A DNA stretch of 64,000 bases from Candidatus Uhrbacteria bacterium (GTDB taxonomy: Bacteria > Patescibacteriota > Patescibacteriia > GWA2-47-26): NCBI GenBank assembly GCA_016187515.1, contig JACPJN010000006.1, positions 192,856 through 256,855 on the forward strand, in the 5' to 3' direction. Positions 3,800 through 62,933 of the stretch are shown here, piece after piece. Below the pieces are notes generated by a model, which worked only from the letters and a program-made list of their open reading frames with translations, did no database searches and was not told the DNA's origin. A program made the translations under genes and the position numbers. Numbering within the stretch: the first letter of the stretch is position 1; each line of letters starts with the position of its first letter.

Positions 3800-3885
3800 G
3801 TTGATTGAGTAAATCAAGTAAATCAAGCGAGACAAGTAAATCAAGGGCATGATTTACACTTGATTTACCTGCTTTACTTCAATAC
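3800..3885. repeat. Array of direct and inverted 10-nt repeats (gtaaatcaag / cttgatttac) immediately upstream of the DHH gene start
   Basis: It reads gtaaatcaag gtaaatcaag cgagacaa gtaaatcaag ggcatga tttacacttgatttac. That is four direct copies plus inverted copies. Confidence 0.5.
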
Positions 3886-7824: not shown

Positions 7825-8070
7825 AAGGAACGGAAAAATACTATCCCTATATTGCATCCAAAGAGCTTAATCTGCAGATTTTGCCAAAATAAAATACAGC
7901 CCCTACTCCCTTGCGGGAGACGCCACCATGAAGGCGACTAGTCAGGGCTGTATCAATTCCACTATCACCATACCATAAGATACAATATCTGTCAAGACAA
8001 CGGTGGGGATAAGTCATGCATAGCAACAATATGATAACGCAATAACTTAATAACCAAATAACTCATCAAT

Positions 8071-10758: not shown

Positions 10759-11941
10759 TATGCAACCGACAAAACAACAACTTGATGAACTACTGACGCG
10801 GGGAGTCGCGGAAGTGATTGACCGTGAACATCTTAAGGCGCGCCTGCTTAAAGGCGAGAAGTTGCGCCTCAAGCTTGGTATTGATCCGACTGGGCCGGAT
10901 TTGCATATTGGGCATGCGGTGGTACTTTGGAAATTACGCGCGTTTCAGGAACTCGGACATCAAGTTATAATTGTGGTCGGCGATTTTACCGCCACGATCG
11001 GCGATCCTTCCGGACATGATAAAATGCGCGAACCGCTCACGCCCGCGCAAATCAAAAAAAATCTTACTACCTTTAAAAAACAAGCGCTCATGGTGCTTGA
11101 CCCGAAACGCACCGAGTTTGCGCCGCAGACCAAATGGTTTGATAAAATGACACCCCAGGACATCATGGGCCTTACCACGCACTTCTCGGCATGGCGCATT
11201 CTTGAACGAGATCTTTTTGAAAGGCGGAAAAAAATGGGCGAGGAATTGAGTTTGCTGGAACTATTCTATCCCGTATTTCAGGCCTATGATTCCGTGGCCA
11301 TCAAGGCCGAGGTAGAATTCGGCGGAACTGATCAGACCTTTAATCTCTTACAAGGCCGGAAGATCCAACCACACTTTGGCCAAAAACCACAAGATATCTT
11401 CACGATGCAACTTCTTGAAGGCCTTGACGGTCGCAAAATGAGCAAGACCTACGGCAACACGGTAAACCTACTTGATGCTCCGGAAGAAAAATACGGAAAA
11501 ATCATGTCGTTGCGGGATGATCTAATGGTAAAATACTTTGCGCTTTGCACACGTCTGCCTTTGGATGAAATAACGCGCATCTTAAAGCAGAATCCCCGCG
11601 ACGCCAAAATGCGCTTGGCGCGAGAAATTGTGGCGCTATACCATGGAGCGAAAGCCGCGCAGAGGGCAGAGGATCAATTCGTGCGGACGTTTCAGAAGCA
11701 TGAAATTCCAAGCGAGATAAGCGAGATAAGGATTAAGGATCAAGTATTGAACATTGTTGAACTGTTGGTGAAAGCGAAGCTGGCGGAAAGCAAAGGTGAT
11801 GCCCGCCGAGTAGTTGAACAAGGCGGGGTGCAGGTGGATGGAAAAGTTGTCAAAGATCCCAACGCCGAAATCAAACTCGGGAAGCAAGGCGTGCTTCTCC
11901 AAAAAGGCAAACGGCATTTTGTGCGAGTGTATGGTGCTTAA
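10759..11941 (+). CDS. tyrS: tyrosyl-tRNA synthetase with C-terminal S4 domain
   Basis: HIGH motif (GIDPTGPDLHIGHAV), KMSKT, and an S4-like C-terminus. I place the start at MQPTKQQLDELL (10759). Confidence 0.85.
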
Positions 11942-13974: not shown

Positions 13975-15225
13975 ATGCATATTGCCATTGACGCTCGAAT
14001 GTATGGAACCGCCCAGCGCGGGATTGGACGGTATTTGATGAAGTTGATTGAGGGGTTGGAGGAAATTGAAATTGCTCCCACCCCTCCGAACCTCCCTTCG
14101 GGCAGGGGAGGAAATTTGTACACCATTTTTTTACGCCGTGAAAATTTTGACGAATACCAGCCGCGCAATCCCAATTTCAAAAAAGCGCTTTGGAACGCGC
14201 CCTGGTACGGCTTGAAAGAGCAAATCAATTTCAAACAACTCACTGCTGTGAACTGTGAACCGATGGCTGTGAACTCAATATACCATTTCCCCCATTGGAA
14301 TGTCCCCCTTTTATTCCGCCAGCCATTTGTGGTAACTATCCATGACCTGGAACTTTTCTCATCCAATCGCACACGGGAGAATACAACGCGCGGACGACTT
14401 ATCTACTGGTTGAAATTTCAGGCCTTCAAAATAATTTTCCGCCATGCCGTACTGGCCGCCCGCGGAATCATTGTGCCGAGCAATTATGCGCGCGAGCAGC
14501 TTTTAGATCTGTATCCGCAGGCGCGGAAAAAAGTACGGGTGATCTACGAAGCACCCGCTTTAGTCAACAGTTCACAGTCAACAGTTCACAGTAAACCAAA
14601 GCAAGCCGTGAACCGTGAACCGCTGACTGATGACTACGTCTTGTACGTTGGCGCCGCCTATCCGCATAAAAATCTTCCCCGCCTATTTGAGGCGTGGAAG
14701 ATCGTACACGCGCAATTACCTGACTACAAACTTGTACTGGTCGGCCGGGAGGATTGGTTTTGGAAAAAACTAAAAGCACAGTGGGGGCATAACCCCTCCC
14801 ATCCTCCCCTTACCTTAAGGGGAGGAGACGATCGCGACCCACCTCTTAAGGTAAGAGGGGGGAGGGGGAGTTATGGCCAACAAAACGACATTATCTTTTA
14901 TGGCGAAACTACGGACGCCGAACTTACCGCCCTTTACCAAAACGCCGCCCTCCTGGTGCAGCCCTCGCTCACGGAAGGATTTTCTCTCCCTCCGCTTGAA
15001 GCGCTTGCCCACGGCACGCCGGTCGCGGTTTCCGACATCCCGGTACACCGCGAAATTCTAGGCCAAGCCGCGGCCTATTTTGATCCGAAAAATCCCGCCG
15101 CCATTGCTAACGTGATTATTCATACCCTGCGTAACCCGATAATCGCTAAGCTGCCGCGTACCTATTCTTGGCGCGAAAATGCCCAACAAACTCGGGCGCT
15201 GTACGAAACCGTCAAGATTGTGTAA
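13975..15225 (+). CDS. glycosyltransferase family 1 (GT4)
   Basis: The C-terminus has the E-x7-E region EGFSLPPLEALAHGTPV. There are palindromic insertions at 14088-14124 and 14788-14876. Confidence 0.7.
   Translation: MHIAIDARMYGTAQRGIGRYLMKLIEGLEEIEIAPTPPNLPSGRGGNLYTIFLRRENFDEYQPRNPNFKKALWNAPWYGLKEQINFKQLTAVNCEPMAVNSIYHFPHWNVPLLFRQPFVVTIHDLELFSSNRTRENTTRGRLIYWLKFQAFKIIFRHAVLAARGIIVPSNYAREQLLDLYPQARKKVRVIYEAPALVNSSQSTVHSKPKQAVNREPLTDDYVLYVGAAYPHKNLPRLFEAWKIVHAQLPDYKLVLVGREDWFWKKLKAQWGHNPSHPPLTLRGGDDRDPPLKVRGGRGSYGQQNDIIFYGETTDAELTALYQNAALLVQPSLTEGFSLPPLEALAHGTPVAVSDIPVHREILGQAAAYFDPKNPAAIANVIIHTLRNPIIAKLPRTYSWRENAQQTRALYETVKIV
14788..14876. repeat. Palindromic element in-frame in the glycosyltransferase gene (a smaller copy lies at 14088-14124)
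   Basis: The sequence cataacccctcccatcctccccttaccttaaggggagga...cttaaggtaagaggggggagggggagttatgg translates to HNPSHPPLTLRGGDDRDPPLKVRGGRGS. Confidence 0.6.
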
Positions 15226-25813: not shown

Positions 25814-28800
25814 TCATACCTTTCTCATTCCCACCCATATTTTATTGTTGTTTTCAAGGGGGATTTCGTATGACCAGGACATCTCTTGCGGCGCGTTTAC
25901 AAGTTTCACCGCGCGGGCCAGGACTGCTTTGCGCAGTTGTTTTTGATATTCTTTGACAACACCCCTCACCCCGCCCTCACCCGGCCTTTCGGCCACCCTC
26001 TCCCGCGGGGAGAGGGGAGGGTGAGGGTTCATGATTGCAATCAGTATGTCCACCTTGTCGGACGGCGTCAGTCCTGCGGCTTTGCGCGCGTCGTTGATCA
26101 GGCGCGTAAGTTCGCGAGCGAGGCCTTCTTTTTTAAGTTCCGGGGTGAGTTCGGTATTGAGTGAGACGGTGAGATTGCCGTCGGTTTTAGTGATCCAGCC
26201 GCCCCCTCCCCTCGCCCCTCCCACCAAGGGAGGGGAATTTCCAATCGTTTCCTCCCCCGCGACAGTCTCCCTCTCCCCCTGTGGGAGAGGGTTGGGGTGA
26301 GGGGTGGAGGATTTAGGAGGGGGGACAATCGTCACCTCCCTCACATTCACCTCCTCCGCAATTAATTGTAGCAAAACATCGCGATTCGCACTTTCTAATT
26401 TCCAATTTCCAATTTCCAATTTCCCCAATGGTTGTCTCACCTTCAACTTCGCTTCCGCCCGCGCCGCGTGCGCCAGCTCCACCACCTTACGCGCCGCGCT
26501 CATCTCTTCAAGCAGCGCCGTATCAATTTTTGCTTTCTTGAGTTTTGGCCAGTCGGATAAGTGAACGGATATTGGATGATTGGATGATTGGATGATTGGT
26601 GATTCATTGTCTTTTCGAATCTCTAATCTCGAATCTCTAATCTCCCGATACACATGCTCCGCCAAAAACGGCATAAATGGGGCAAGCACTTGCGACAGAG
26701 TATGTAGAACGTAGCGGGTAGTGAGTAAGGCGACGCGCTTCTCGCTTTTCTTTCCCTTAAAACGATCACGACTGCGGCGAAGATACCATTGGGAGAGATC
26801 AGCGATAAAATCCTGTATGGGCCGGCTGGCCTCGGATAATTTATATGCCTCCATATTCTCGGTCACCTCCTGAATCAGTTGATGCAACCGTGCGGCAATC
26901 CATTTGTCCAATATATGTTTAGAATTTGGAATTTTGAGTTTGGAGTTTGTTTGGGATTTGGGATTTGGAATTTGGAATTTTTCGTCTTGTGGTGCGTACA
27001 ATTTATAAAACTCCACCACATTCAAAAGCATGCTGACTACTTTATTATACATCTCGCGCACGCCTGCCTCCGAGAAATTTAAATTCTCCGCGTGCATGAC
27101 CGGAGAAGTCGCAAAGTAATAACGCAAGGCATCCGCGCCATACTTATTTATTACCGCCTCCGGTTCCGGATAATTTTTAAGGCGCTTGGCCATTTTTTTG
27201 CCATCTTCCGCCAGCACAATGCCATTGACAATCACGTTTTGAAACGCCGGCACGACTTTGCCAATCGGGATAGCTGGCGTTTTGCCGCGGGTAAGCGCCA
27301 CGGCTAGCACATGAAGCGTATAAAACCAGCCGCGGGTTTGATCCTGTCCTTCAGCAATAAACTCCGCTGGAAACGCCGCCTCAAACCGATCCTTATTTTC
27401 AAACGGATAGTGCATTTGCCCGTAGGGCATGCTTCCGGACTCAAACCAGCAATCTAATACTTCCGGAATGCGCTTCATTGTTCCTCCGCACTGCTTACAA
27501 GGAAAAGTTAATTCATCAACAATATGTTTATGCAAATCACCCACTGATTTCTCCACCAATTTTTCCAACTCTGCCACAGAACCGACAACGATAATGTTTT
27601 GACATTTGGAATTTGAATTTTGTTTGTCATTTGTAATTTGTAATTTGTAATTTCCGGTTTGGCATCGCCAAACCGGCAGCGGCGTTCCCCAAAAACGATT
27701 GCGTGAAATCGCCCAGTCGCGCGCGCCTTCAAGCCATTTGCCAAAACGCCCTTCCTTAATATACTCCGGCACCCAATTCGTCTTTTTATTGGCTGAAAGC
27801 AAAAGCTTTTTTAATTCGGTCACGCGCACAAACCAGCTGGAGGTTGCGTAATTCAAAAGCGGGGTATCACAGCGCCAGCAATGCGGATAGCTATGCGTGA
27901 TTGGCTCTGCGCGAAACAATTTGCCGCTTCCGCGCAGCCATTCTACAATTTTTTCATCTGTGGCGCCGGGATTGTCTTTGGGCTTAACTTCCCAACCCTT
28001 GAAATCCGCGACCTCCTCCTTAAAGCGGCCGTCCATACCCACATGCTGAACCAGCGGAATTTTTTGCTTTTGTCCAACCTGATAATCATTCTCGCCAAAA
28101 GCCGGCGCAATATGCACAACACCCGTACCATCTTCGGTCGTAACAAAATCTCCGGCCACCACCCGAAACGCGCGCTCGGTATCTTTATAGTATGGAAATA
28201 ATGCTTCGTATTTTAGCCCAACCAAGTCCTTGCCTTTAAGCTCTTTTACCACCTCGTATCCTCCACCAAGCATGGAAAGTCGCGCTTTGGCCAGAATGTA
28301 GTATTCGTCACCATTCGTAACCCCCCTATCCCCCCTTACCCTAAGGGGGGAATTTTCTGCGGCTCCCTCCCTTAAAGTAAGGGAGGGCTGGGGTGGGTTA
28401 TGAATCTTCACCACCACATAATCAACATCCGGATTTACCGCCAGAAGGACATTCCCCGGCAATGTCCATGGGGTTGTCGTCCAAGCCAGAAGATAAGTTG
28501 GTAAGTTGTAAGTTGTAAGTTGTAACTTACTACTTACTTGCTTACTACTTACAACTCGGAATTTCACGGTCACCGCCTTCTCTTTTACATCTTTATAGCC
28601 CATCGTTACTTCAAAATTTGAAAGCGGAGTTCCACAACGCGGACAAATATGCATGGCCTTGTATCCTTCATAAATCAACCCTTGTTTCCAAAGTTCCTTA
28701 AACACCCACCACACGCTTTCCATGTACGAAAGATCCATGGTTTTGTAGTCGCGCTCCATATCCACCCAGCGTCCAATGCGGCGGATTGTCTTTTTCCACT

Positions 28801-29173
28801 CTTCCACATAAGTCAGCACGGCCGCGCGGCAGGCCTCGTTGAATTTGGTTACCCCACAGACCTCAATCGCCTGGCGACTTGATAAATTTAAGTTCTTTTC
28901 CACGATATTTTCAACCGGAAGCCCATGGCAGTCCCAGCCCCATTTGCGCTCCACGCGATACCCGCGCATTGTCCAAAACCGCGGCACAATATCTTTCATC
29001 AGCGAAGCGACAATATGCCCGTAGTGCGGAAGGCCGGTGGCAAACGGCGGGCCGTCGTAAAACACAAAATCGCCGCGGGGCGCGGGTTTTTCCAGTGATT
29101 TCTCAAACACGTGGTGCTCGTCCCAGTATTTGAGTATTTCCTCTTCAATTTCGGGAAATTTTGGTTGAGCCAT
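25814..29173 (-). CDS. ileS: isoleucyl-tRNA synthetase
   Basis: HIGH motif (PHYGHIV) and KMAKRLKN (KMSKS). It carries at least 6 tandem-repeat insertions and 3 palindromic insertions. I place the start at MAQPKFPEIEE. Confidence 0.85.
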   Translation of the reverse strand: MAQPKFPEIEEEILKYWDEHHVFEKSLEKPAPRGDFVFYDGPPFATGLPHYGHIVASLMKDIVPRFWTMRGYRVERKWGWDCHGLPVENIVEKNLNLSSRQAIEVCGVTKFNEACRAAVLTYVEEWKKTIRRIGRWVDMERDYKTMDLSYMESVWWVFKELWKQGLIYEGYKAMHICPRCGTPLSNFEVTMGYKDVKEKAVTVKFRVVSSKQVSSKLQLTTYNLPTYLLAWTTTPWTLPGNVLLAVNPDVDYVVVKIHNPPQPSLTLREGAAENSPLRVRGDRGVTNGDEYYILAKARLSMLGGGYEVVKELKGKDLVGLKYEALFPYYKDTERAFRVVAGDFVTTEDGTGVVHIAPAFGENDYQVGQKQKIPLVQHVGMDGRFKEEVADFKGWEVKPKDNPGATDEKIVEWLRGSGKLFRAEPITHSYPHCWRCDTPLLNYATSSWFVRVTELKKLLLSANKKTNWVPEYIKEGRFGKWLEGARDWAISRNRFWGTPLPVWRCQTGNYKLQITNDKQNSNSKCQNIIVVGSVAELEKLVEKSVGDLHKHIVDELTFPCKQCGGTMKRIPEVLDCWFESGSMPYGQMHYPFENKDRFEAAFPAEFIAEGQDQTRGWFYTLHVLAVALTRGKTPAIPIGKVVPAFQNVIVNGIVLAEDGKKMAKRLKNYPEPEAVINKYGADALRYYFATSPVMHAENLNFSEAGVREMYNKVVSMLLNVVEFYKLYAPQDEKFQIPNPKSQTNSKLKIPNSKHILDKWIAARLHQLIQEVTENMEAYKLSEASRPIQDFIADLSQWYLRRSRDRFKGKKSEKRVALLTTRYVLHTLSQVLAPFMPFLAEHVYREIRDSRLEIRKDNESPIIQSSNHPISVHLSDWPKLKKAKIDTALLEEMSAARKVVELAHAARAEAKLKVRQPLGKLEIGNWKLESANRDVLLQLIAEEVNVREVTIVPPPKSSTPHPNPLPQGERETVAGEETIGNSPPLVGGARGGGGWITKTDGNLTVSLNTELTPELKKEGLARELTRLINDARKAAGLTPSDKVDILIAIMNPHPPLSPRERVAERPGEGGVRGVVKEYQKQLRKAVLARAVKLVNAPQEMSWSYEIPLENNNKIWVGMRKV
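26200..26326. repeat. Largest palindromic element (~125 nt) in-frame in ileS. Further copies lie at 25961-26030 and 28318-28402.
   Basis: It contains ccccctcccctcgcccctcccaccaagggaggggaa...ctccctctccccctgtgggagagggttggggtgaggggtgg. Confidence 0.6.
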
Positions 29174-29240
29174 AACGAGAAACAGTGTATCGCATTTATC
29201 TGCTTTTTGCAATCGCTCGGTCGTGGTATACTGTGGAGAT

Positions 29241-29759
29241 ATGAAACCAACCATTTACCTCGGCGGGGATCATGCCGCGTTTGAGCTGAAGGAAAAAATC
29301 ACGGCGTATTTGAAAACGCGCGGCTATATAGTGCGCGATTTCGGGCCGCACACGTATGATCCGGATGATGATTACCCGGATTTTGTGATTCCAATGGCCA
29401 AAGCAGTTGGGCGCGCAGGACCCCTCCTTAATCCTCCCCTTAAAAAGGGGAGGAAAAAAGTTGAGGTACGCGGCATGGCGCTTGGCGGATCCGGTATCGG
29501 CGAATGCATCGCGGCCAACAAAGTAAAAGGGGTACGCGCGGTGCGCGCGTGGGATAAAGTCAGCGCAAAGATGAGTAGATGGCACAATGATACCAATGTG
29601 CTTTGTCTTGGCGGCGGGAAAACCATGGACAAAACGCAAAACGTCGGCCTCACCTTTGCCCAAGCCAAACCAATTATCGACACTTGGCTGACCACTCCCT
29701 TCTCCAACGCCCCGCGACATGTACGGAGATTGAAAAAAATCTCAAGGATTGATAAATAA
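29241..29759 (+). CDS. rpiB: ribose-5-phosphate isomerase B
   Basis: IYLGGDHAAFELKEKI...DDYPDF...GGSGIGECIAANKVKGVRA...RWHNDTNVLCLGG matches the RpiB/LacAB family. It is divergent from ileS. There is a palindromic insertion at 29421-29458. Confidence 0.75.
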   Translation: MKPTIYLGGDHAAFELKEKITAYLKTRGYIVRDFGPHTYDPDDDYPDFVIPMAKAVGRAGPLLNPPLKKGRKKVEVRGMALGGSGIGECIAANKVKGVRAVRAWDKVSAKMSRWHNDTNVLCLGGGKTMDKTQNVGLTFAQAKPIIDTWLTTPFSNAPRHVRRLKKISRIDK

Positions 29760-30500: not shown

Positions 30501-30561
30501 CGGGGTACAATGGAAGCATTCGTGAGTTATTCGTCTCTTATTTGTGAGTTATTTGTGTTTT

Positions 30562-31308
30562 ATGAAAGAAATAATCCCCACCATTCTTGTGCAAGATCGT
30601 TTGGAGTTTGAACGGCGGCTTGGTATAATGGAGGGGAAGATTCCGGTTGCGCAGATGGATATTATGGATGGGAAGTTCGTTAAAAACACCACCTTTTCCG
30701 ACCCGAAAATCGCCGCGCGCTACCAAGTGGACTATGAGTTGGATTTGATGGTGGCCGATCCTGGGCCGGTGCTGGAGAAGTGGCACGACACCCTCCCCCC
30801 CGCCCGTGGCGAGGCTCGCCTTTGGCGGCAGCCCCCTCCCATTAAGGGAGGGGGAAAAGTGGTACGAGCGTTTGTGCATGCCGAGATAAAAAAACCTCTG
30901 GCGTCGCTTCTTGAAAAAATAAAATCGTACGGCTGGGAAGCCGGGATTGCGCTCAATCCGGATACAGGGTGGGAAGTGGTGGAGCCGTATATCGCTCGTA
31001 ACCCCTCCCGACCTCCCCTTACCCTAAGGGGAGGAGAAACTGTGGACTCCATACTTTTTATGACGGTCTATCCCGGGCAAAACGGCGCGGCGTTTCAGCC
31101 GAAAGTAATTCCGAAGATTACGCAGTTTCATAAAGCGTATCCAAAGATAATAATTGAGGTGGACGGCGGAGTAAACGAGAAGACCTTACCCCGCCTACTC
31201 ACGGCCGGCGTTACTCGTTTTGCGGTTGGCAGTGCGATATGGTCCGCGCCGGATCCCGTTGGAGAATATAAAAAACTTTTTCAATTAACAAATAACTCAC
31301 TAATATAA
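30562..31308 (+). CDS. rpe: ribulose-phosphate 3-epimerase
   Basis: It has DIMDGKFV and the end-motif VDGGVN. There are two palindromic insertions at 30790-30858 and 30999-31038. The leader carries 11-nt repeats. Confidence 0.75.
   Translation: MKEIIPTILVQDRLEFERRLGIMEGKIPVAQMDIMDGKFVKNTTFSDPKIAARYQVDYELDLMVADPGPVLEKWHDTLPPARGEARLWRQPPPIKGGGKVVRAFVHAEIKKPLASLLEKIKSYGWEAGIALNPDTGWEVVEPYIARNPSRPPLTLRGGETVDSILFMTVYPGQNGAAFQPKVIPKITQFHKAYPKIIIEVDGGVNEKTLPRLLTAGVTRFAVGSAIWSAPDPVGEYKKLFQLTNNSLI
30790..30858. repeat. Palindromic element in-frame in rpe (second copy at 30999-31038)
   Basis: ccctcccccccgcccgtggcgaggctcgcctttggcggcagccccctcccattaagggagggggaa. Confidence 0.55.
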
Positions 31309-31377
31309 ACGAATGACCCACCTATAGGAATTCGTGAGCCATACGTCTTCTTATTCGTGAACCATTCGTCAATTCAA

Positions 31378-31470
31378 TATGAAGAAATTATTTTGGATCC
31401 TCATTGGTCTCGTGATTGCGCTGACGGTGGTAATTCTGGTGCTTGCCTTGGTCGCGGCGCTTCGCGCTTA
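31378..31470 (+). CDS. putative 30-aa single-TM peptide
   Basis: MKKLFWILIGLVIALTVVILVLALVAALRA*. It is flanked on both sides by attcgtgag repeat arrays. Confidence 0.3.
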
Positions 31471-31568
31471 AACACAAATAGCTCACGAATAGAAACGAAT
31501 AGCTCACGGATATATTCGTGCGCCATTCGTAATTTGTGAGTTATTTGTAACCAATTCGTGAGCTATTC

Positions 31569-32432
31569 GTGCATATGCATATTCATGACGATAAGATCAA
31601 GGAGTTAGAAGAGAAAGCTCTCCAGGTGCGCGAGCTTATCATTGATATGCTTGTCGCGGCGGGCTCCGGCCATTCGGCCGGCCCCTTGGACATGGCCGAC
31701 ATTTTTGTCGCGCTATATTTTCATATTCTGCACCATGATCCGAAAAACCCGGACTGGCCCGAACGCGACCGGCTGATTTTATCCTGCGGCCATATTTGTC
31801 CGGTGCGTTATGCAACTATGGCGCTCGCGGGATATTTTCCAATTGAAGAATTAAAGACGCTGCGCAAGTTCGGCACGCGCCTGCAAGGGCACCCGGAACG
31901 CCTGCGTCTTCCCGGATCCGAGACCACTTCCGGCCCGCTTGGCGCCGGACTGGCACAATCCTGCGGCCTGGCCTACGCCGCGCGTATGGACGGCAAGACC
32001 TGGCGTACTTATTGCATTACCTCGGACGGCGAGCATGAAGCCGGATTGCATTGGGAAGCCGTGCTGTGGGCCGGAAAATATAAACTTTCTAATTTGACGT
32101 GCATTGTAGACCGCAATACCATTCAAATTGACGGCGGGACCGAGGAGATCATGCCGCTTGAACCCCTGCGCGCCAAATACGAGGCCTTTAATTGGCATGT
32201 GCTGGAAGTCGGCGGGCACAATCTGGAACAATTTGTTGACGCGGTGGAAGAAGCCAAATCCATTTTGGAAAAACCCACGGTCATCATCGCGCACACCATC
32301 CCCGGCCGCGGCGTTTCGTTCATGGAGAAAAAATTCGAATGGCACGGGATCCCGCCGAATAAAGAACAAGCGGCCCAGGCATTGCGTGAACTACGCACTC
32401 TTGGAGGTAAGATTACTTCGGAGCACGAGTGA
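31569..32432 (+). CDS. tkt: transketolase, N-terminal (TPP-binding) subunit
   Basis: GSGHSAGPLDMADIFVALYF...GHPE....TTSGPLGAGL matches Transketolase_N. This is the split form. Confidence 0.8.
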   Translation: MHMHIHDDKIKELEEKALQVRELIIDMLVAAGSGHSAGPLDMADIFVALYFHILHHDPKNPDWPERDRLILSCGHICPVRYATMALAGYFPIEELKTLRKFGTRLQGHPERLRLPGSETTSGPLGAGLAQSCGLAYAARMDGKTWRTYCITSDGEHEAGLHWEAVLWAGKYKLSNLTCIVDRNTIQIDGGTEEIMPLEPLRAKYEAFNWHVLEVGGHNLEQFVDAVEEAKSILEKPTVIIAHTIPGRGVSFMEKKFEWHGIPPNKEQAAQALRELRTLGGKITSEHE

Positions 32433-32482
32433 TATTTGACTAATGGCTCACAAATGCGTAACAAATAGCTCACGAATAACAA

Positions 32483-32911
32483 ATGAAAGACGAATTACTC
32501 ACAAATAAAGTGCTGCATGCGGAATTATCGTACAAATTCGTTTCACTGGCAATTGAAGTCAGTAAAAAGTATGGCTATCTTCATAAAGAACAAGTGTATC
32601 AAAAAGTTATGGAGGAGTTGCTCGCTAAAAATGGTATTCCTTTCATCGCCCAGCCAAGGATTAATGTGCATTCGCTCGATACGGGTAAATCTTTAGCGGT
32701 ATATGTTCCGGACATATTAGTAGATCAAAAGATCATCGTAGAACTCAAGGCATTGCCATTTGTTCCTAAACCGCAGATTAACAAGTTAGAACAATATCTA
32801 AAAACATCCCGCTATGAGGTCGCTTATATGGTAAACTTCGGCACGCCAAAAGCACAGATTGTCAGAAGAATTTATACCAATGATCGAAAACCATTTGTGA
32901 GCCATTTGTAA
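32483..32911 (+). CDS. GxxExxY-family protein (PD-(D/E)xK-like)
   Basis: ELSYKFVSLAIEV...YGYLHKEQVYQKVMEEL...IIVELKAL...VNFG matches the GxxExxY family. It is inserted between the two tkt halves. Confidence 0.7.
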   Translation: MKDELLTNKVLHAELSYKFVSLAIEVSKKYGYLHKEQVYQKVMEELLAKNGIPFIAQPRINVHSLDTGKSLAVYVPDILVDQKIIVELKALPFVPKPQINKLEQYLKTSRYEVAYMVNFGTPKAQIVRRIYTNDRKPFVSHL

Positions 32912-32934
32912 TTATTCGTGAGTAATTTGTCACT

Positions 32935-33927
32935 ATGCCGGTAAGCCAAACTGCTAAATTAGTGCCCACACTGTTTGACACCCAGTCCCTCAAACAAGTA
33001 CCCACCAGAGATGGCTACGGTCTTGGCATAGTTGAAGCCGGAAAGGAAAACCCCAACGTCGTCGTGCTTTGCGCGGATCTTACCGAATCCACGCGGAATT
33101 TGGAATTTAAAAAACAATTTCCCGACCGGTTTATCCAGTGCGGGGTGCATGAGCAATTTCTGGCTGCCGCCGGAGCCGGGCTTGCGCTGGCCGGAAAAAT
33201 TCCGTTTATCTCCTCGTATGCGATGTTTTGCCCGGGCCGCGCCTGGGAACAAATCCGCACCAACATTTGTCTTAATGAGGTAAATGTCAAAATCGCCGGG
33301 GCCCACGCCGGGGTCTCCGTCGGCCCGGATGGCGCAACGCATCAAGCCATTGAGGATATCGCGATCATGCGCCCGATTCCCAATATGCAGATTATCGTGC
33401 CCTGTGATATGATTGAGACGCGCAAAGCCACACTCGCTGCCGCGAAACTCCCCGGCCCTTTCTACGTGCGCTTCGCGCGCGAAAAGTCGCCGGTTTTTAC
33501 AACCGAAGAAACGCCTTTTGAATTCGGGAAGGCCACGGTGTTTCACGATGGGAGCGACGTGGCAATTGTGGCCTGTGGACCGCTTGTCCATGAAGCAATG
33601 CTTGCCGCGCGAGAACTGGAAAAAAGGAAAATCTCCGCGCGGGTCATCAACTCGCACACTGTAAAACCCCTTGATGAAGACACAATACTAGCCGTGGCAG
33701 AAGAATGCGGCGCAATCGTTACAGTAGAAGAGCACCAAATCACCGGCGGACTGGGCGGGGCGATTGCAGAGTTTCTGGTCAAACACGCGCCAGTGCCGAT
33801 CGAAATGATCGGTATCCAAAACTTATTCGGCCAAAGTGGAAACCCTCGGGAACTTTTAGAACATTACGAACTCACCGCCCCGCATATCGTAGAATCCTGC
33901 CTAAGAGTACTGGCAAGGAAAAAATAA
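32935..33927 (+). CDS. tkt: transketolase, C-terminal (pyrimidine-binding) subunit
   Basis: ...CGVHEQFLAAAGAGLALAGKIPFISSYAMF...GPDGATHQAIEDIA matches Transket_pyr plus the C-terminal domain. Confidence 0.8.
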   Translation: MPVSQTAKLVPTLFDTQSLKQVPTRDGYGLGIVEAGKENPNVVVLCADLTESTRNLEFKKQFPDRFIQCGVHEQFLAAAGAGLALAGKIPFISSYAMFCPGRAWEQIRTNICLNEVNVKIAGAHAGVSVGPDGATHQAIEDIAIMRPIPNMQIIVPCDMIETRKATLAAAKLPGPFYVRFAREKSPVFTTEETPFEFGKATVFHDGSDVAIVACGPLVHEAMLAARELEKRKISARVINSHTVKPLDEDTILAVAEECGAIVTVEEHQITGGLGGAIAEFLVKHAPVPIEMIGIQNLFGQSGNPRELLEHYELTAPHIVESCLRVLARKK

Positions 33928-34061
33928 CCCTCTCTTTAACATACCTTATGGCCTTCCACCCCAAACCCTCCCGTCCAACGGCTTTTCTTTTTCCGCCCTT
34001 GCGCGCGCCGGAGGAAAAAGGCGATTTTCGCCAAGAAATTTCCTGGCGCATCTTTCGCATC

Positions 34062-34661
34062 ATGGCCGAATTTATTGACGGTTTTCAGTTTTTGGCCGAC
34101 CTTAAAAAAGAAGTAAGTTTTTTCGGCTCCGCGCGGTTCAAGCCGTCCAACAAGCACTACCGCGAAGCGGAGAAACTCGCGCGGATGCTCGGCAAAGCCG
34201 GATTTACCGTAATTACCGGCGGCGGTCCGGGAGTGATGGAGGCGGCGAACAAGGGGGCAATTGAAACCGGCGCGGAGTCGGTCGGACTGAATATTCAGCT
34301 CCCGAAAGAACAGCGGGTTAACCGGTATGTAAAGCATGGCATTGGTTTCCATTATTTTTTTACCAGAAAAGTTATGCTCTCGGCTTCGGCGCAGGCCTAC
34401 GTATTCTTTCCCGGCGGATTTGGAACGCTTGATGAAATGTTTGAACTCATTACGCTTATTGAAACGGAAAAAGCCGAGCGCATCCCTATTGTACTTATCG
34501 GCAAGGATTACTGGAGCGGACTGCTTAGCTGGATTGAAGAACAAGTATATAAAAAACACCACGCGATAGAAAGGGGAGACATGAAAATTTACACGCTGGT
34601 GGACTCGGTGGAGGAGGCGTATGAGATTGTGGTGAAGTCAAAAGAACGAGCGTATTTCTAG
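34062..34661 (+). CDS. LOG-family protein (cytokinin riboside 5'-monophosphate phosphoribohydrolase-like)
   Basis: SFFGSAR....VITGGGPGVMEAANKGA...PGGFGTLDEMFE is the TIGR00730 signature. The ORF-track start at 33705 overlaps tktC by 220 nt and is rejected. An alternative start is 33948. Confidence 0.7.
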   Translation: MAEFIDGFQFLADLKKEVSFFGSARFKPSNKHYREAEKLARMLGKAGFTVITGGGPGVMEAANKGAIETGAESVGLNIQLPKEQRVNRYVKHGIGFHYFFTRKVMLSASAQAYVFFPGGFGTLDEMFELITLIETEKAERIPIVLIGKDYWSGLLSWIEEQVYKKHHAIERGDMKIYTLVDSVEEAYEIVVKSKERAYF

Positions 34662-34677
34662 TGATGAATCATGAATT

Positions 34678-35067
34678 ATGAATCAAGAATCAAGGGGATT
34701 GAAATCGTTTACTGATCTCAATGCATGGAAAGAAGGACATGCACTCGTTCTACAAATTTACAAAACAACAAAGGCCTGGCCGAAAGAGGAAGTGTTTGGA
34801 CTAATAAGCCAGATACGTCGCTGTGCAGTATCAATTACTTCCAACATTGCCGAGGGTTTTAGCAGACAATCGTATAAAGAAAAAGTACAGTTTTACGCAA
34901 TCGCACTCGGATCAGTCACCGAACTTCAAAACCAACTCCTGATCGCGAAAGATGTGGGGTACATCGCTATTGACAATTTCAACACAATTGCACAACAGTC
35001 AATCAAGGTACACAAAATTATCAATGGTCTGGTCAAAAGCTCAAAATCCATGATTCATAATTCGTGA
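34678..35067 (+). CDS. four-helix-bundle protein of the '23S rRNA intervening-sequence protein' family (TIGR02436)
   Basis: ...AWKEGHALVLQIYKTTKAWPKEEVFGLISQIRRCAVSITSNIAEGFSRQS.KE...F. It is bracketed by tgattcat/atgaatca repeats at 34663-34700 and 35043-35083. Confidence 0.75.
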   Translation: MNQESRGLKSFTDLNAWKEGHALVLQIYKTTKAWPKEEVFGLISQIRRCAVSITSNIAEGFSRQSYKEKVQFYAIALGSVTELQNQLLIAKDVGYIAIDNFNTIAQQSIKVHKIINGLVKSSKSMIHNS

Positions 35068-35083
35068 TTCTTGATTCATCAAT

Positions 35084-36061
35084 ATGCTCAATCTCCTCTC
35101 CATTGGCGACATTAAACTGGATACTTTTGTAGTAGTACCGGAAACCTCCAGTTTTTGTAAACTGCAAATGCCGGAGTATTTGCTTTGCTTTAATTATGGC
35201 GAGAAAATTCCGGTCGGCGCGGTGGAATCGCAAATCGCCGGAAGCGCGCCAAACGTCGCGGTCGGACTTTCGCGATTAGGGTTTAAGACCAGTGTATTTA
35301 GCTTTATGGGACAAGACGGCATTCATAAGCTCGCGCTCGATGTGCTTAAAAAGGAAAAAGTGGACGCGCGTCTGATTAAGACCTTAACGGGCGCGAAAAG
35401 CAGTTTTTCCGCGGTGTTAAACTATAAAGGAGAAAAGACCATTTTGGCCTCGCACATTTCATACCCTTACGCCCTTCCGAAGCGCTTGCCGCAAATGGAA
35501 TGGATGTACGTGTGTGAAATGGGACATAATTACAAACGGCTTTACCGTGAAGCGGCGCGCTGCGCAAAAAATAGGCCGCTAAAAATCGGGTTTAACCCGG
35601 GCGCTATTCAAATTATGGAACGCGATAAAGCGCTTTATGAGCTGATCGCGCAAACCGAGGTGTTGTTTGTTAATGTTGGCGAAGCGCACGCCATCTTAAA
35701 ACAAGAACGCCAACCCCTGCCCATTGAGCGCGTCGCGTCAGAATTGTATAAAATGGGGCCAAAAATTATCGTCATTACCGACGGCCGCAAAGGCGCCTAC
35801 GCCTTTGACGGGAACCAGCTGGATTTCTGCCCAGTATTTCCTTCCAAGCGCGTGGAGGCAACCGGCGCCGGAGATGCCTTTGCAACCGGCTATCTTGGGG
35901 CGCTGATGCGCAAGATTGGCCATCGGGAAGCGCTGCGCTGGGGCGCGGCCAACGGGGCGTCGGTGGTCGGTTTTGTCGGGCCGCAACCCGGACTTTTGAC
36001 CCTTCCGCAGATGCGCGCGACTTTGCGCAAGCACGCGAATATAAAAGCCGTGAAAAGGTAA
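35084..36061 (+). CDS. PfkB-family carbohydrate kinase
   Basis: Ribokinase-like fold with the C-terminal GAGDAFATGYL motif. Confidence 0.7.
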   Translation: MLNLLSIGDIKLDTFVVVPETSSFCKLQMPEYLLCFNYGEKIPVGAVESQIAGSAPNVAVGLSRLGFKTSVFSFMGQDGIHKLALDVLKKEKVDARLIKTLTGAKSSFSAVLNYKGEKTILASHISYPYALPKRLPQMEWMYVCEMGHNYKRLYREAARCAKNRPLKIGFNPGAIQIMERDKALYELIAQTEVLFVNVGEAHAILKQERQPLPIERVASELYKMGPKIIVITDGRKGAYAFDGNQLDFCPVFPSKRVEATGAGDAFATGYLGALMRKIGHREALRWGAANGASVVGFVGPQPGLLTLPQMRATLRKHANIKAVKR

Positions 36062-36465: not shown

Positions 36466-37356
36466 ATGGTAATGTCCCTGCACTCCACACTTATCCGTGC
36501 CGCGAAAGAAAAATGGGCCGTACCGCATTTTAATGTCGGCGACTTTGAGCAGTTTCGCGGGGTGTGTGAAGCGGCGGCAAAGTTGCGCGCGCCGGTCATG
36601 ATCGGCACTTCCGAAGGCGAACGCGATTTTTTAGGTCTGCCCCAGTCGGTCGCGCTGGTAAAGGCGTTCCGCGATCAGCTGCATCTGCCTATTTTTCTTA
36701 ATGCTGATCATACCCGAAGTGTACGGGCCGCCAAAGCGGCCATTGACGCCGGGTACGACAGTATCCATATTGACCTTTCGCGAGAGCCGTGGAACACGAA
36801 CCTTAAGGGTACGCGAGAAATAGTGCGCTACGCGCGTGAAAAATGTAAAAGGAAAAATGTAAAATGTAAAATTAGTGTTGAAGGCGAATTGGGCTACATT
36901 GTAACTGAATCATCAAAAGTGTATAAAAAGAAAATTTTGGTTGACCCTTCCACCTTTACAAAGCCGGAGGAGGCAAAAAAATTTGTGCGGCTTACCGGAG
37001 TTGATCGTTTTGCGCCGGCGGTTGGAAATTTGCACGGCATCGCCGCAAACAAACCAAAACTTGACTTTGTACTTATAAAAAAACTACGCGGTATAATTCC
37101 GATGAATGTCGCGCTGGTGCTTCACGGCGGATCCGGAAATAGTCCGGCGGCGTTTAAAAAAGCGATCAAGCTCGGTATCAACAATATCCACATTTCCACC
37201 GAACTGCGCATCGCGTATGTGAAATCCGAACACGCCTCGCTCCATCGCCAAAAAAACGAACTCGCCCCGTACAAACTCGCCGCGCCGGTAGTTGAGGCCG
37301 TGCGCAAAAAAGCCGAATATTTTATTAGATTGTTCGGGGCCTATAATAAAGCATAG
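36466..37356 (+). CDS. fba: class II fructose/tagatose-bisphosphate aldolase
   Basis: ...PHFNVGDFEQ....LNADHT....HGGSG. An in-frame repeat aaaatgtaaaa sits at 36838-36870. Confidence 0.75.
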   Translation: MVMSLHSTLIRAAKEKWAVPHFNVGDFEQFRGVCEAAAKLRAPVMIGTSEGERDFLGLPQSVALVKAFRDQLHLPIFLNADHTRSVRAAKAAIDAGYDSIHIDLSREPWNTNLKGTREIVRYAREKCKRKNVKCKISVEGELGYIVTESSKVYKKKILVDPSTFTKPEEAKKFVRLTGVDRFAPAVGNLHGIAANKPKLDFVLIKKLRGIIPMNVALVLHGGSGNSPAAFKKAIKLGINNIHISTELRIAYVKSEHASLHRQKNELAPYKLAAPVVEAVRKKAEYFIRLFGAYNKA

Positions 37357-37357
37357 T

Positions 37358-38443
37358 ATGTTTGATGTCATTACAATAGGAAGCGCGACCCGCGACGTGT
37401 TTTTGTTTGTCCAAGCGCTTCATCCGCATCGGGAATCAGACGCGGTAAGTAAAATTGAGGCCTGTCTTCCCTTCGGCGCTAAAATTGATATTGAACGCCT
37501 TGCTTTTGATACCGGCGGAGGAGCAACCAACAGCGCCGCGACGTTTGCGCGGCTGGGAAAATTTGAAGTTGCGGCGCTCACGCGCATAGGACAAGACAGC
37601 CGCGGACAAAGTATTTTAAAAGTGCTTCACGCCGACAACATTGATACTTCGTTGGTGCAAGTCACCAATAAAGATCATACCGCTTATTCTTCAATCCTTT
37701 CTCCAACCCACGCGCATAGTGAGCGCACGATTTTGGTCTATCGCGGGGCATCCTCATGCATTGAGAGCAGTAAAATTCCGTGGACTAAACTGCGTGCCAA
37801 ATGGTTTTATATATCTTCGCTTGGCGGCGATCTGTTACTTTTAAAGAAACTTATCGACCATGCTCGAAGGATAAAAGCTCAAGTCGCCTGGAATCCCGGC
37901 GGTCAAGAACTCTCCAAACTCACCCCTCCCCTTAGGTTAAGGGGAGGTTGGGAGGGGTTACGACAATCAATTGACTTCCTCATCCTCAACCGTGAAGAAG
38001 CCGCAAAACTCACTGGAAAAAAATTCGATGACACCAAAGGATTGCTTCGCGCGCTGGCGCGTACTACACACATCGCAGTCATGACCGACGGCCCTAAAGG
38101 CGCGTATGCCATCGTAGGTTCACAGTCATCAGTTCACAGTTCACAGTATCGTAATTCAAAAACTAATTACCCAATTACCAAATTACCTAATCACCAAACG
38201 GCCTACTTCGTCCCCTCTGTCGGCCACAAACCGGAAAATCTCACCGGCGCCGGTGACGCTTTCGGTTCCGGCTTTGTAACCGGCTGGATCAAAAGCCGCG
38301 GCGATATCAAATACGCCTTACGCTTGGCTTCGTTCAATGCTGACAGTGTAGTCCAACACGTCGGCGCGAAAAACGGAATTCTTGAGAAAATTCCTTCCGC
38401 AAAGCAGCTGCAAAAGTTGCCCGTAAAGACACTGCACATTTAG
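37358..38443 (+). CDS. PfkB-family sugar kinase (second copy)
   Basis: I place the start at MFDVITIGSATRDV. The C-terminus has a GAGDAF motif. There is a palindromic insertion at 37921-37962 and tandem repeats at 38120-38200. Confidence 0.65.
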   Translation: MFDVITIGSATRDVFLFVQALHPHRESDAVSKIEACLPFGAKIDIERLAFDTGGGATNSAATFARLGKFEVAALTRIGQDSRGQSILKVLHADNIDTSLVQVTNKDHTAYSSILSPTHAHSERTILVYRGASSCIESSKIPWTKLRAKWFYISSLGGDLLLLKKLIDHARRIKAQVAWNPGGQELSKLTPPLRLRGGWEGLRQSIDFLILNREEAAKLTGKKFDDTKGLLRALARTTHIAVMTDGPKGAYAIVGSQSSVHSSQYRNSKTNYPITKLPNHQTAYFVPSVGHKPENLTGAGDAFGSGFVTGWIKSRGDIKYALRLASFNADSVVQHVGAKNGILEKIPSAKQLQKLPVKTLHI

Positions 38444-40092: not shown

Positions 40093-40136
40093 ATTTGTGA
40101 GTAATTTGTCTTTAATTCGTGAGCTATTTGTGCAAT

Positions 40137-41162
40137 ATGCCCAAAGTATTTATCACCCGCCAGATTCCGGATCAAGGAATTAAGATGCTGAAAGATAAAA
40201 AATATTCCGTGTCGGTTTATCCAAAGGATGAAATTATTCCGCGCGCGGCGCTTTTGAAAGGCGTAAAGGGGGTAGATGCGCTATTGCCGATTCTTACTGA
40301 CCACATTGATGCCGAGGTGCTGGAAGCGGCTGGAGCACAACTGAAGATTATAGCCAACTATGCCATTGGCACTGACAACATTGACCTTCAAGCGTGTCAA
40401 AAGCGCAAAATACTGGTTACGAATGCTCCGGGTCCGGAAATCGTGCAGTCCGTGGCCGAGCACACGTTTGCCCTGATGCTGGCGCTCGCGCACCGGATCG
40501 TGGAAGCCGATAAATTCACGCGCGCCGGTAAGTATCGCGGCTGGGGTCCGCAGATTTTACTGGGTACTGATGTCTATGGTAAGACCTTGGGCATTGTTGG
40601 GCTTGGCCGCATCGGGTTTGCCGTAGCTGATCGCGCCGTTAAAGGATTTGGCATGCAAATAATCTATCACGATAAGGAGCGCGATTTAAAGTTTGAGAGA
40701 GATTTTTCCGCCTACGGCGGATCCGCCTCGGGCGGAGAGAAACAATATGGCGCGCGCTTTGTAGATTTATCCACCCTTCTGAAACAAGCTGACTTTGTCT
40801 CGCTCCATGTGCCGTTTTTGCCTTCCACGCGGCATCTCATTTCCACACGTGAGCTCGCGCTCATGAAACCAACCGCGTTTTTGATTAACACCGCGCGCGG
40901 CCCGATTGTGGACGAAAAAGCGCTCCTGCAAGCGTTAGAGAAAAAGCAAATTGCCGGCGCGGCGCTGGATGTATTTGAGTGCGAGCCGTCAATTGATTGC
41001 GATATCAGCGATCACCTTGAACTTAAAAGCTTCGATAATGTAATTTTGACTCCGCACACGGCCTCGGCCACCGTTGAAACCCGCCAAGCCATGAGCGCGA
41101 CCGCGGCGCAAAACATCATCGCGGCGCTGGAAGGGGAAACCCCGTCCAATTTAGTAAAGTGA
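40137..41162 (+). CDS. D-isomer-specific 2-hydroxyacid dehydrogenase (glyoxylate/hydroxypyruvate reductase-like)
   Basis: NAD-binding GLGRIGFAVADRA. Catalytic His/Glu/Arg region ...RGPIVDEKAL...LTPHTAS. Confidence 0.75.
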   Translation: MPKVFITRQIPDQGIKMLKDKKYSVSVYPKDEIIPRAALLKGVKGVDALLPILTDHIDAEVLEAAGAQLKIIANYAIGTDNIDLQACQKRKILVTNAPGPEIVQSVAEHTFALMLALAHRIVEADKFTRAGKYRGWGPQILLGTDVYGKTLGIVGLGRIGFAVADRAVKGFGMQIIYHDKERDLKFERDFSAYGGSASGGEKQYGARFVDLSTLLKQADFVSLHVPFLPSTRHLISTRELALMKPTAFLINTARGPIVDEKALLQALEKKQIAGAALDVFECEPSIDCDISDHLELKSFDNVILTPHTASATVETRQAMSATAAQNIIAALEGETPSNLVK

Positions 41163-61423: not shown

Positions 61424-61543
61424 TGCCGGCATAGCCTACTTTCCCGGGACCGGATTGGGTCCGAGTATCATCGGCCTTGGATGCTTTCACTTCCGTGTTC
61501 GGAATGGGAACGGGTGGGTCACACCGAAATTAAACACCGGCAA
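61424..61543 (-). rRNA. rrf: 5S ribosomal RNA
   Basis: The reverse complement reads TTGCCGGTG...CCGTTCCCATTCCGAACACGGAAGTGAAAGC...GGAAAGTAGGCTATGCCGGCA. Helix I pairs its ends. Confidence 0.75.
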
Positions 61544-61799
61544 ATCTGGGGTGCTTTTTAGTATTGTTGTAAGAGTAATCACATCGCTCGCTCCGCTCGC
61601 TCTGTGTACGAATTACAAATCTTGTACGAATATTACGAATGTTGTCAATTCAAATTCGTAGTATTCGCAACGCCATTCGTTGATTCGTACACAGGAAGCG
61701 CCGGAGGCGCTGAATCCAAATTAGTGCTTCAGTGCTTTTGGATCGATTAGTACCGCTCGGCTCAAACCGTTACCGGTCTTACACCTGCGGCCTATCGCC

Positions 61800-61920
61800 A
61801 GCGCTCCGCGCTGCAAATCCCAAATTACAATTTCCAAATCCCAAACAAATTTTAAATCCCAATTTCTAAATTCCAATTTTGTGATTTGGAATTTATGATT
61901 TGGGTATTGTTTGTAATTTG
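61800..61920 (-). repeat. AT-rich simple-repeat expansion segment inside the 3'-terminal 23S rRNA region (H98 variable region)
   Basis: tttggaat/aatttggg-type repeats are inserted between two conserved blocks: one ending ...ccaataaccaagcacc and one starting ggccgcaggtgtaagaccgg. Confidence 0.5.
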
Positions 61921-62005
61921 GTGCTTGGTTATTGGAATTTCCAGTGCGAAGCACTGGTTTTACCTGGTCATCTCCCAGGGATCCATAAGACCTAATCTTG
62001 AGGAC

Positions 62006-62044
<39 letters not shown>

Positions 62045-62169
62045 AACGCTGCTACCGAGCAATGCCCTTGGTAGAACAACTCGTACACAGGAGGTTCGTG
62101 CCTTTTGGTCCTCTCGTACTGAAAAGGCGCCCTCTCAAGTCTTTACGCCCGCGGCAGATAGGAGACCGA

Positions 62170-62922: not shown

Positions 62923-62933
62923 GCATGTATTCC

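Follow-up and report, generated by a model that had tools for sequence, protein, structure and literature searches.

The intervening sequence (IVS) within the Coxiella burnetii gene for 23S rRNA is 428 nt long, has a 28-bp stem formed by terminal inverted repeats, carries tandem heptamers before the start codon of its S23p gene and has a guanine-plus-cytosine (GC) content below that of the genome; its site of cleavage by RNase III is the first repeat (PMC4990558). The origin and mobility of rRNA IVSs have been unresolved since their first description (PMC4990558). In the candidate phyla radiation (CPR), rRNA insertions sometimes encode proteins of the PF05635 family (PMC11270868), and PF05635 genes have also been reported between cas genes, e.g., cmr3 and cmr2 in Pleurocapsa PCC 7327 (PMC3936711). 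Here, we analyzed a stretch of 64,000 nt from Candidatus Uhrbacteria (CPR; contig JACPJN010000006.1, positions 192,856 to 256,855; hereafter the window), in which two small genes, a GxxExxY gene and a four-helix-bundle (4HB) gene of PF05635, lie between the genes of a pentose-phosphate/sugar operon, each enclosed by inverted arrays of short repeats. Both genes are very probably mobile cassettes that move together with their repeats, and the best explanation overall, which we hold to be probable, is a single class of small, IVS-like mobile cassette residing at operon stop-start junctions. ORF-bearing (open reading frame-bearing) IVSs of rRNA were already known; new here are IVS-type elements outside rRNA, a second cargo family and ORF-less derivatives. 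The literature searched contained no link between tandem-unit or heptamer inverted arrays and either family in CPR, and no such architecture outside rRNA.

The operon spans 29.2-41.2 kb of the window and comprises, in this order, rpiB, rpe, an ORF of 30 aa, tktN, the GxxExxY gene, tktC, a LOG gene, the 4HB gene and pfkB, followed by FBA, a second pfkB (37292-38443), a PaaX-like gene and a 2-hydroxyacid dehydrogenase (2-HADH) gene. The two cassettes share one architecture: an inverted array of 7-11-nt units, one small ORF, and the same units again in the opposite orientation. In both cassette ORFs the start codon, the first ~9 and last ~9 codons and the stop codon are built of array units; the arrays thus reach into the ends of the ORFs, and the repeats include the start and stop codons. 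The components of the cassettes are:

32433..32934, plus strand: whole GxxExxY cassette, 502 nt, occupying the entire spacer from the tktN stop to the tktC ATG
32439..32508, plus strand: GxxExxY 5' arm, tandem GCTCAC(G/A)AAT units, spanning the ATG and codons 1-9 (MKDELLTNK)
32483..32911, plus strand: GxxExxY / PDDEXK_3 ORF, 142 aa, PD...ExK catalytic set intact
32884..32935, plus strand: GxxExxY 3' arm, tandem ATT(C/T)GTGAGY units, spanning the last codons (PFVSHL*) and ending 4 nt before the tktC ATG
34662..35083, plus strand: whole 4HB cassette, 422 nt, occupying the entire spacer from the LOG stop to the pfkB ATG
34659..34702, plus strand: 4HB 5' arm, 7-nt units GAATCAT, GAATTAT and GAATCAA, spanning the ATG and the codons MNQESRG
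34678..35067, plus strand: 4HB ORF, 129 aa, PF05635/TIGR02436
35041..35084, plus strand: 4HB 3' arm, 7-nt units in opposite orientation (TGATTCA, TAATTCG, TGATTCT, TGATTCA), spanning SMIHNS* and ending 4 nt before the pfkB ATG

The GxxExxY arms are inverted arrays of ~11-nt tandem units (ATTCGTGAGCN), the arrays carry ATTCGTGAGC units, and the sub-arms found by a repeat search are 86-94% complementary; the 4HB arrays are of a 7-nt TGAATCA unit type, with arms of 44 nt each that are 77% complementary (88% over a 25-nt core). An earlier reading of the window made from the sequence only (hereafter the sequence-only reading) had described a split transketolase and two repeat-flanked small genes of these families; profile matches and repeat analysis bear this out, and the inverted orientation of the GxxExxY arrays, absent from that reading, can be added. 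Contigs obtained independently in several sequencing runs agree base for base over both cassettes; the repeats are therefore not an assembly artefact, and misassembly was excluded.

The evidence for mobility comes mainly from the corresponding junctions in other genomes (designated here by L numbers). Exact-protein look-ups yielded five genomes with the same operon, in which tktC is 79-86% identical to that of the window. The search for empty transketolase sites proposed in the sequence-only reading was successful, the tktN|tktC junction being empty in L169 (TAAacttATG), L171 (TAAatATG) and L172/L173 (TAAtATG); in L170 it is occupied by three unrelated ORFs. The LOG|pfkB junction is empty in L170 (TAGtATG) and L172 (TAGtacaatccATG). 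L169 has at LOG|pfkB a different 4HB gene (117 aa, 48% identical), with inverted TACGTAG-type units on each side and inserted at the same point as in the window, between the same host bases (TAR-tg ... caat-ATG). At the same site, L177 (the pfkB of which is 83% identical to that of the window) carries a GxxExxY gene of the window type (88% identical) with ATTCGTGAG-type arrays. The more distant genome L088 has a GxxExxY cassette at tktN|tktC and a second PDDEXK_3 gene after LOG, with CACGGAT units upstream, and in L179 a GxxExxY gene (93% identical) is located at tktN|tktC. LOG|pfkB thus holds four different cassettes in four genomes, and a single GxxExxY clade, with the same units, occupies tktN|tktC in three genomes but LOG|pfkB in another. 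Discrete cassettes travelling with their flanking repeats, the core claim of the sequence-only reading, are supported by these empty and refilled junctions, by the clade at two junctions and by the flanks of homologs (see below).

In a collection of species-representative genomes, the best tktC match was 69% identical, and the tkt junction was usually empty or occupied by unrelated genes. tktN and tktC abut in most genomes; other CPR lineages (L023, L025, L027, L030, L047, L050 and L068; also L170) have unrelated genes inserted between them, among these genes for secreted or membrane proteins, in L047 an ORF of GIY-YIG type and in L050 a pair resembling a toxin-antitoxin system. Insertion seems to recur at this junction.

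Relatives of the 4HB protein are abundant (7,577 were returned by one search, with very numerous full-length homologs at 61-81% identity), and we inventoried 80 metagenome loci with 4HB homologs. Significant inverted repeats flank the gene at 58 of the 63 unique loci and at 14 of 201 neighbouring genes, most of the latter adjoining a cassette or being themselves another 4HB paralog. Two or more GAAT[ACT]AN units on each side were seen at 52/64 4HB loci versus 0/201 control genes. The 110 proteins encoded next to 4HB cassettes form 80 clusters. Of 51 cassettes, 44 run in the same direction as both neighbours, and their spacers consist nearly entirely of array. Around more divergent 4HB paralogs, the inverted arrays consist of other units (TTAGGATTA, TTAAGNNA, CATTTAAG, AAAATCAAA), and ORF-less GAATNAN hairpins (forward array, short loop, reverse array) occur on the same contigs as cassettes, just upstream of start codons. 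For GxxExxY homologs, inverted arrays were seen at all eight readable loci (one of them readable on the 5' side only), at sites such as nusG|rplK (L176), after a tRNA synthetase gene (L178) and after the gene of a giant surface protein (L174), and in these three genomes the units drift with protein distance (ATCCGTGAGCC, ATCAGTGAGTT, ATCTGTG). Different cassettes of one genome have different units (window, L088, L145, L163, L090). The unit sequence tracks the protein clade and not the host. The inventory suggested by the sequence-only reading therefore shows repeats accompanying homologs of both genes. The same reading had taken both families to be hitch-hikers of rRNA IVSs, which holds for the 4HB family (PMC4990558, PMC11270868) and could not be verified for GxxExxY; none of the 20 loci of 4HB homologs checked for an rRNA context had one.

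Sequence divergence sets the cassette apart from its surroundings. Between the window and L088, amino-acid identity is 84.5% for the GxxExxY protein and 61%, 67% and 70% for tktN, tktC and LOG, nucleotide identity is 0.80 in the cassette and 0.62-0.65 in the flanks, and the synonymous divergence (dS), saturated in the tkt genes, is 1.5 in the cassette. The ratio of non-synonymous to synonymous divergence (dN/dS) of the GxxExxY gene is 0.03-0.06, and because of this value and of the abundant full-length 4HB homologs, the substitution pattern indicates that the cassette ORFs are functional and under strong purifying selection. Their GC content is 38-40% vs 50-55% in host genes; cassette GC stays at 36-39% in hosts of differing GC, and the 4HB ORF was below its surroundings in 43/43 other loci. 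In the comparison of the window with L179 (32076-33556), nucleotide identity is 0.75-0.87 on the tktN side, 0.78-0.92 in the cassette and ~0.70 on the tktC side. This asymmetry, seen in a search for a co-conversion gradient, could reflect transfer of the upstream flank together with the cassette, although the signal is weak.

The GxxExxY ORF matches TIGR04256 (2.2e-21, 76.4 bits vs a cutoff of 35) and PF13366 PDDEXK_3 (5.5e-22, 78.8 bits vs 22), the Pfam domain covering only residues 14-128 of the 142-aa protein. A PDB sequence search with this protein gave nothing significant. The single-sequence AlphaFold model was unusable (pLDDT 45) and was replaced by an alignment-based model (pLDDT 92.5), for which the top PDB matches in Foldseek were lambda exonuclease, Cas4 and restriction-enzyme-like proteins, with modest E-values (~1e-3). 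In an alignment of 24 sequences, E36, D77, E87 and K89 are invariant. The PD-(D/E)xK fold, for which the sequence-only reading had asked for a check, is thus confirmed at the level of a predicted structure, with its E...D...ExK residues in place. The 4HB ORF matches TIGR02436 (1.4e-35, 121.8 bits vs a cutoff of 24) and PF05635 (1.9e-37, 128.1 bits vs 33.8), the Pfam domain covering only residues 13-117 of 129 aa; the protein is homologous to the solved structures 2GSC (2.6e-19) and 2RLD, each deposited with five chains, and shows a weak match to PF22296 bAvd (1.3e-5, 26.1 bits) under the Pfam threshold of 40. PADLOC defence-system models matched neither protein.

When folded as RNA, the cassettes reach -119 kcal/mol (z = -1.7) and -110 kcal/mol (z = -3.6), and in the predicted fold, in the minimum-free-energy as well as the centroid structure, the 5' and 3' arms pair with each other across the entire ORF, enclosing the start codon. 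By analogy with the IVSs of Coxiella and Leptospira, RNase III might cut the stem of the arms so that the cassette leaves the polycistronic transcript; such removal would explain its tolerance between essential cistrons, and we regard this excision as conceivable but somewhat doubtful. The GxxExxY protein could be an active PD-(D/E)XK nuclease recognizing the palindrome of its own 11-nt arrays and driving homing- or transposition-like copying, with the ORF-less hairpins as non-autonomous derivatives or as targets. The 4HB protein, being Avd-like and having relatives crystallized with five chains per entry, might bind its own heptamer arrays and may need a nuclease in trans. That each protein acts on its own repeats is a tentative proposal, to which we give rather less than an even chance.

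Units of the same kinds also occur elsewhere in the window. ATTCGTGAG with at most one mismatch has 26 matches vs 14.6 expected, a number reached in 0/100 shuffles, and 15 of the 26 are clustered in 30518-32922; ATGAATCA has 11 matches vs 2.3 expected, four of which flank the 4HB gene. The inverted-repeat score of the flanks is 48 for the 4HB gene and 38 for the GxxExxY gene, with a median of 16 for the 61 genes of the window. The same units also adjoin rpe, tktN and 2-HADH. The sequence-only reading had named arrays standing equally often beside unrelated genes as part of the evidence that would count against it; within the window this is partly the case, given the ORF-less hairpins and leader arrays, and the comparison with other genomes favours cassettes. 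The arrays and hairpins outside the two cassettes are:

30518..30561, plus strand: forward-only ATTYGTGAG array, immediately before the rpe ATG (30562)
31309..31370, plus strand: short hairpin of ATTCGTGAG-type units, without an ORF, separating rpe from the 30-aa ORF, z = -4.5, kept in L170
31472..31574, plus strand: hairpin without an ORF, a reverse array of ATTCGTGAG units followed by a forward one, between the stop of the 30-aa ORF and the tktN ATG
40093..40136, plus strand: forward-only ATTYGTGAG array, leader of 2-HADH, near-identical in L169 (11895-11941)
61595..61700, minus strand: ORF-less hairpin of TACGAAT-type units in the 23S-5S spacer, fold z = -7.5
61800..61945, minus strand: ORF-less IVS-like hairpin of short A/T-rich units within the 3' part of the 23S rRNA gene, z = -5.9

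The hairpin at 31472-31574 has an RNA fold of -46.1 kcal/mol (z = -7.6). The junction in which it lies, between the 30-aa ORF and tktN, is empty in L169 and L171 and has ORF-less hairpins of four unit types in the window, L172, L170 and L088. The 30-aa ORF itself (MKKLFWILIGLVIALTVVILVLALVAALRA, 31379-31471) is hydrophobic, and its position and sequence are kept in every Uhrbacteria relative examined (L169, L170, L171, L172, L088). A promoter-like TAGAAT stands just upstream of the 2-HADH leader array. Between 30518 and 35084 of the window, no Shine-Dalgarno-like sequence is visible before the genes preceded by arrays (rpe, tktN, tktC, pfkB and the cassette ORFs), and their ATG follows the last unit by 3-6 nt; a Shine-Dalgarno-like function of GTGAG was considered and rejected, as its position does not support it.

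The strongest rival explanation takes the hairpin arrays as primary, either as selfish palindromes resembling miniature inverted-repeat transposable elements (MITEs) or as host structures for RNA processing or stabilization, into the loops of which small genes insert or home. It would accommodate the ORF-less hairpins of at least four unit types at the 30-aa-ORF|tktN junction in four genomes, the commonness of hairpins at junctions, in the rRNA operon and even within coding regions, and the presence of two unrelated protein families in the same structural niche. We nevertheless consider it unlikely: the unit sequence tracks the protein clade over many hosts (the 52/64 vs 0/201 given above) and varies among the cassettes of a single genome (the five cases listed above), array units make up the start, stop and terminal codons of the ORFs, and the GxxExxY clade retains its units at another junction. 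Less probable still, and in our view improbable, is that the arrays are host regulatory or 5'-leader elements (operators or translation enhancers) of a sugar-metabolism regulon, with the small genes between them by chance. Forward arrays do stand directly before the ATG of rpe, tktN, tktC and 2-HADH, before which no Shine-Dalgarno-like motif is visible, and the 2-HADH leader array is near-identical in L169; but relatives have the same operon without arrays at these junctions, the arrays follow 4HB and GxxExxY genes into unrelated contexts (nusG|rplK, tRNA synthetase neighbourhoods), and a leader function does not explain the reverse-orientation arrays upstream of the cassette ORFs.

The patchy distribution might also result from repeated loss of cassettes that are ancestral and vertically inherited, since the cassette copies are old (dS ~1.5) and the window, L179 and L088 share a junction. 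Loss would have had to restore TAAnATG-type junctions precisely in several lineages, and it leaves unaccounted for the four different cassettes at one junction, the one clade at two junctions, the far greater similarity of the cassette than of its flanking genes between the window and L088, and a cassette GC consistently under that of the host; we judge this explanation very improbable. Integron-like cassettes, moved by a trans-acting site-specific recombinase that recognizes folded hairpins, come to mind because of the small single-ORF units with palindromes resembling recombination sites and because different cassettes swap at one point. As no integrase was seen near any locus examined, the repeats are on both sides of the ORF and do not form one attC-like site, and the cassettes are single within housekeeping operons instead of arrayed downstream of an attI, this is the least plausible of the four, and we give it hardly any credence.

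Several points weigh against our reading of the two genes as mobile cassettes. The dS between cassette copies is ~1.5, a value so large that no recent transposition event has been caught. No target-site duplication is discernible when filled and empty junctions are compared (the host spacers are just 1-8 nt long), no transposase or integrase was found, the cassette ORFs being only PDDEXK_3 or PF05635, and the 4HB protein is without a known catalytic motif. Host relatedness was judged from few proteins, without a species tree. Judged by the window only, tktN (score 58) and rpe (42) would pass as flanked too, so that only the comparison with other genomes marks the small genes as cargo. In the arms of 63 loci, mismatches comprise 66 G:U vs 83 A:C and 272 transversions; with no G:U excess and mostly transversions, selection on an RNA stem is not demonstrated, and conservation may concern the identity of the units and their orientation, e.g., as protein-binding sites. 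The 2-HADH leader array differs from that of L169 at 2/46 positions, while coding DNA identity is only ~75-78%, which suggests functional constraint or concerted evolution of arrays; forward-only arrays stand in the leaders of both rpe and 2-HADH, and the near-identity of the latter array hints at a host-level role for some arrays. Finally, the authors of the Coxiella study concluded that S23p is probably not expressed and judged it expendable (PMC4990558).

Proteins of PF05635 (whose annotations read '23S rRNA IVS protein' or 'four helix bundle protein') and of the GxxExxY family occur in very large numbers, and the architecture that their genes share outside rRNA provides a testable model in which the protein acts on the palindrome of its own repeats and the stem is processed like an IVS. 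For annotation, operon-internal genes of these families (in the tkt operon, at nusG-rplK in L176, in cmr as in PMC3936711) may be insertions and not functional partners of their neighbours, and the PF05635 genes amid cas genes may reflect the same insertion behaviour. Short repeat arrays of this kind can break assemblies, and they offer a handle on how very compact CPR genomes tolerate insertions between and within essential genes. More speculatively, and we think this rather unlikely, CPR may hold a large, unrecognized class of minimal mobile elements in which a small protein, either a PD-(D/E)XK nuclease or an Avd-like four-helix bundle, specifically recognizes the tandem-unit palindrome around its own gene and copies the gene and ORF-less derivatives into stop-start junctions, rRNA and, in frame, proteins. 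If true, bacterial rRNA IVSs, the orphan 'four helix bundle' and 'GxxExxY' genes known in their thousands, and some of the unusual insertions in CPR proteins and rRNAs would have one origin and mechanism in common.

The transketolase of the window is split into tktN (PF00456, E 1.9e-60) and tktC. The longest tktN ORF begins at 31569, but the real start is likely the ATG at 31575, because an independent gene call on L081 begins there and the relatives share an MPHIHD-type N-terminus. The host genes around the cassettes are:

30562-31308, plus strand: rpe
31575..32432, plus strand: tktN (longest ORF from 31569; stop codon 32430-32432)
32935..33927, plus strand: tktC (PF02779 and PF02780)
33948..34661, plus strand: gene of a LOG/TIGR00730 family protein between tktC and the 4HB gene (stop codon 34659-34661)
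35084..36061, plus strand: pfkB-family kinase gene downstream of the 4HB gene
40137-41162, plus strand: 2-HADH gene, ATG at 40137

Elsewhere in the window, palindromic inserts or extra sequence were seen within several genes. The 3' part of the 23S rRNA gene (61740-64000, minus strand; model positions 2164-2912) holds ~1.5 kb of extra sequence with three group-I-intron-like matches (62218-62487, 62934-63141, 63233-63602), an ORF for a LAGLIDADG endonuclease (62296-62805, minus strand) and, as listed above, the ORF-less unit hairpin 61800-61945; the 5S rRNA gene is at 61424-61541 (minus strand). The isoleucyl-tRNA synthetase (IleRS) gene (25814-29254, minus strand) encodes 1146 aa vs 1006-1065 aa in close relatives and has several lineage-specific in-frame insertions (28304-28390, 27611-27658, 26594-26638, 26231-26320 and 25970-26017, with a hairpin at 28504-28556), some of them AT-rich arrays of short units (AATTACA, GAGATTC), others GC-rich palindromes coding for PLTLRGG- or PLPQGERE-like peptides; in the alignment, relatives carry different inserts at the same columns, which resembles the in-frame palindromic elements of Rickettsia. 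Further palindromic inserts lie in ORFs or at their ends (12211-12293, 12921-12967 and 13485-13555 in gene 11814-13817; 14798-14866 in gene 13975-15225; 5694-5725 in gene 4502-6982; and 3808-3878), comprising CCCTCCCC...GGGGAGGG hairpins that are GC-rich, a hairpin of AT-rich units, AATCACA repeated four times in tandem and a hairpin of AGTAAATCA units, and 'PPLTLRGG'-like segments are also present in rpe and the second pfkB. The stretch 7889-7954 (minus strand) matches the Rfam small RNA family DUF3800-IX sRNA (51 bits vs a gathering threshold of 36.8).

Compared with known mobile elements, the cassettes have the terminal inverted repeats of classical transposons and MITEs but lack the known transposase of an autonomous copy. 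The Rickettsia palindromic elements and the Correia elements of Neisseria are MITE-like palindromes of compact genomes; the ORF-less hairpins at gene junctions, and in frame as in IleRS, are like them, whereas the units here are short, tandem and of widely varying sequence, and ORF-bearing versions exist. REPtrons, or RAYT-REPIN systems, are built around the repetitive extragenic palindrome (REP) and its associated tyrosine transposase (RAYT), and reportedly go back to work by Nunvar in 2010 and by Bertels and Rainey in 2011. The cassettes resemble them in having a single small gene between inverted repeat copies, in the intergenic dispersal of the repeat as hairpin doublets and in the apparent co-evolution of protein and repeat. 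RAYTs, in contrast, are Y1 (IS200/IS605-type) transposases, and no Y1 gene takes that place here, where a PD-(D/E)XK nuclease or a four-helix bundle is encoded; moreover, the flanks here are tandem arrays of 7-11-nt units instead of single REP palindromes, and the genes relocate between genomes. With free-standing homing endonuclease genes, the cassettes have in common a small nuclease gene in the middle of a sequence (here palindromic), a precise presence or absence (found here when the junctions were compared), a patchy phylogenetic spread and AT-richness; they differ in that the insertion sites have no common host target, the flanks move with the gene, and the 4HB protein is not a known nuclease. 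bAvd, the accessory protein of diversity-generating retroelements, shares the 4HB fold family (PMC10053308), but neither a reverse transcriptase nor a template or variable repeat is found near the 4HB gene.

The ORF-bearing 23S IVSs of Coxiella and Leptospira share with the 4HB cassette its size (428 vs 422 nt), a long stem from terminal inverted repeats, tandem heptamers directly before the start codon and a PF05635 ORF, as well as a GC content under that of the host and a sporadic distribution suggesting horizontal spread. The heptamers are found in the 4HB cassette and at 52/64 homolog loci, the GxxExxY cassette using 11-nt units. The stem-forming terminal inverted repeats of IVSs are thus present and the rRNA location is not: IVSs reside in helix 9, 25 or 45 of the 23S rRNA, whereas the cassettes described here are located between protein-coding cistrons. 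Their ORFs are under strong purifying selection, unlike the S23p of Coxiella, which was judged expendable, and the same architecture, built of 11-nt units, carries a second cargo family here, a predicted PD-(D/E)XK nuclease.

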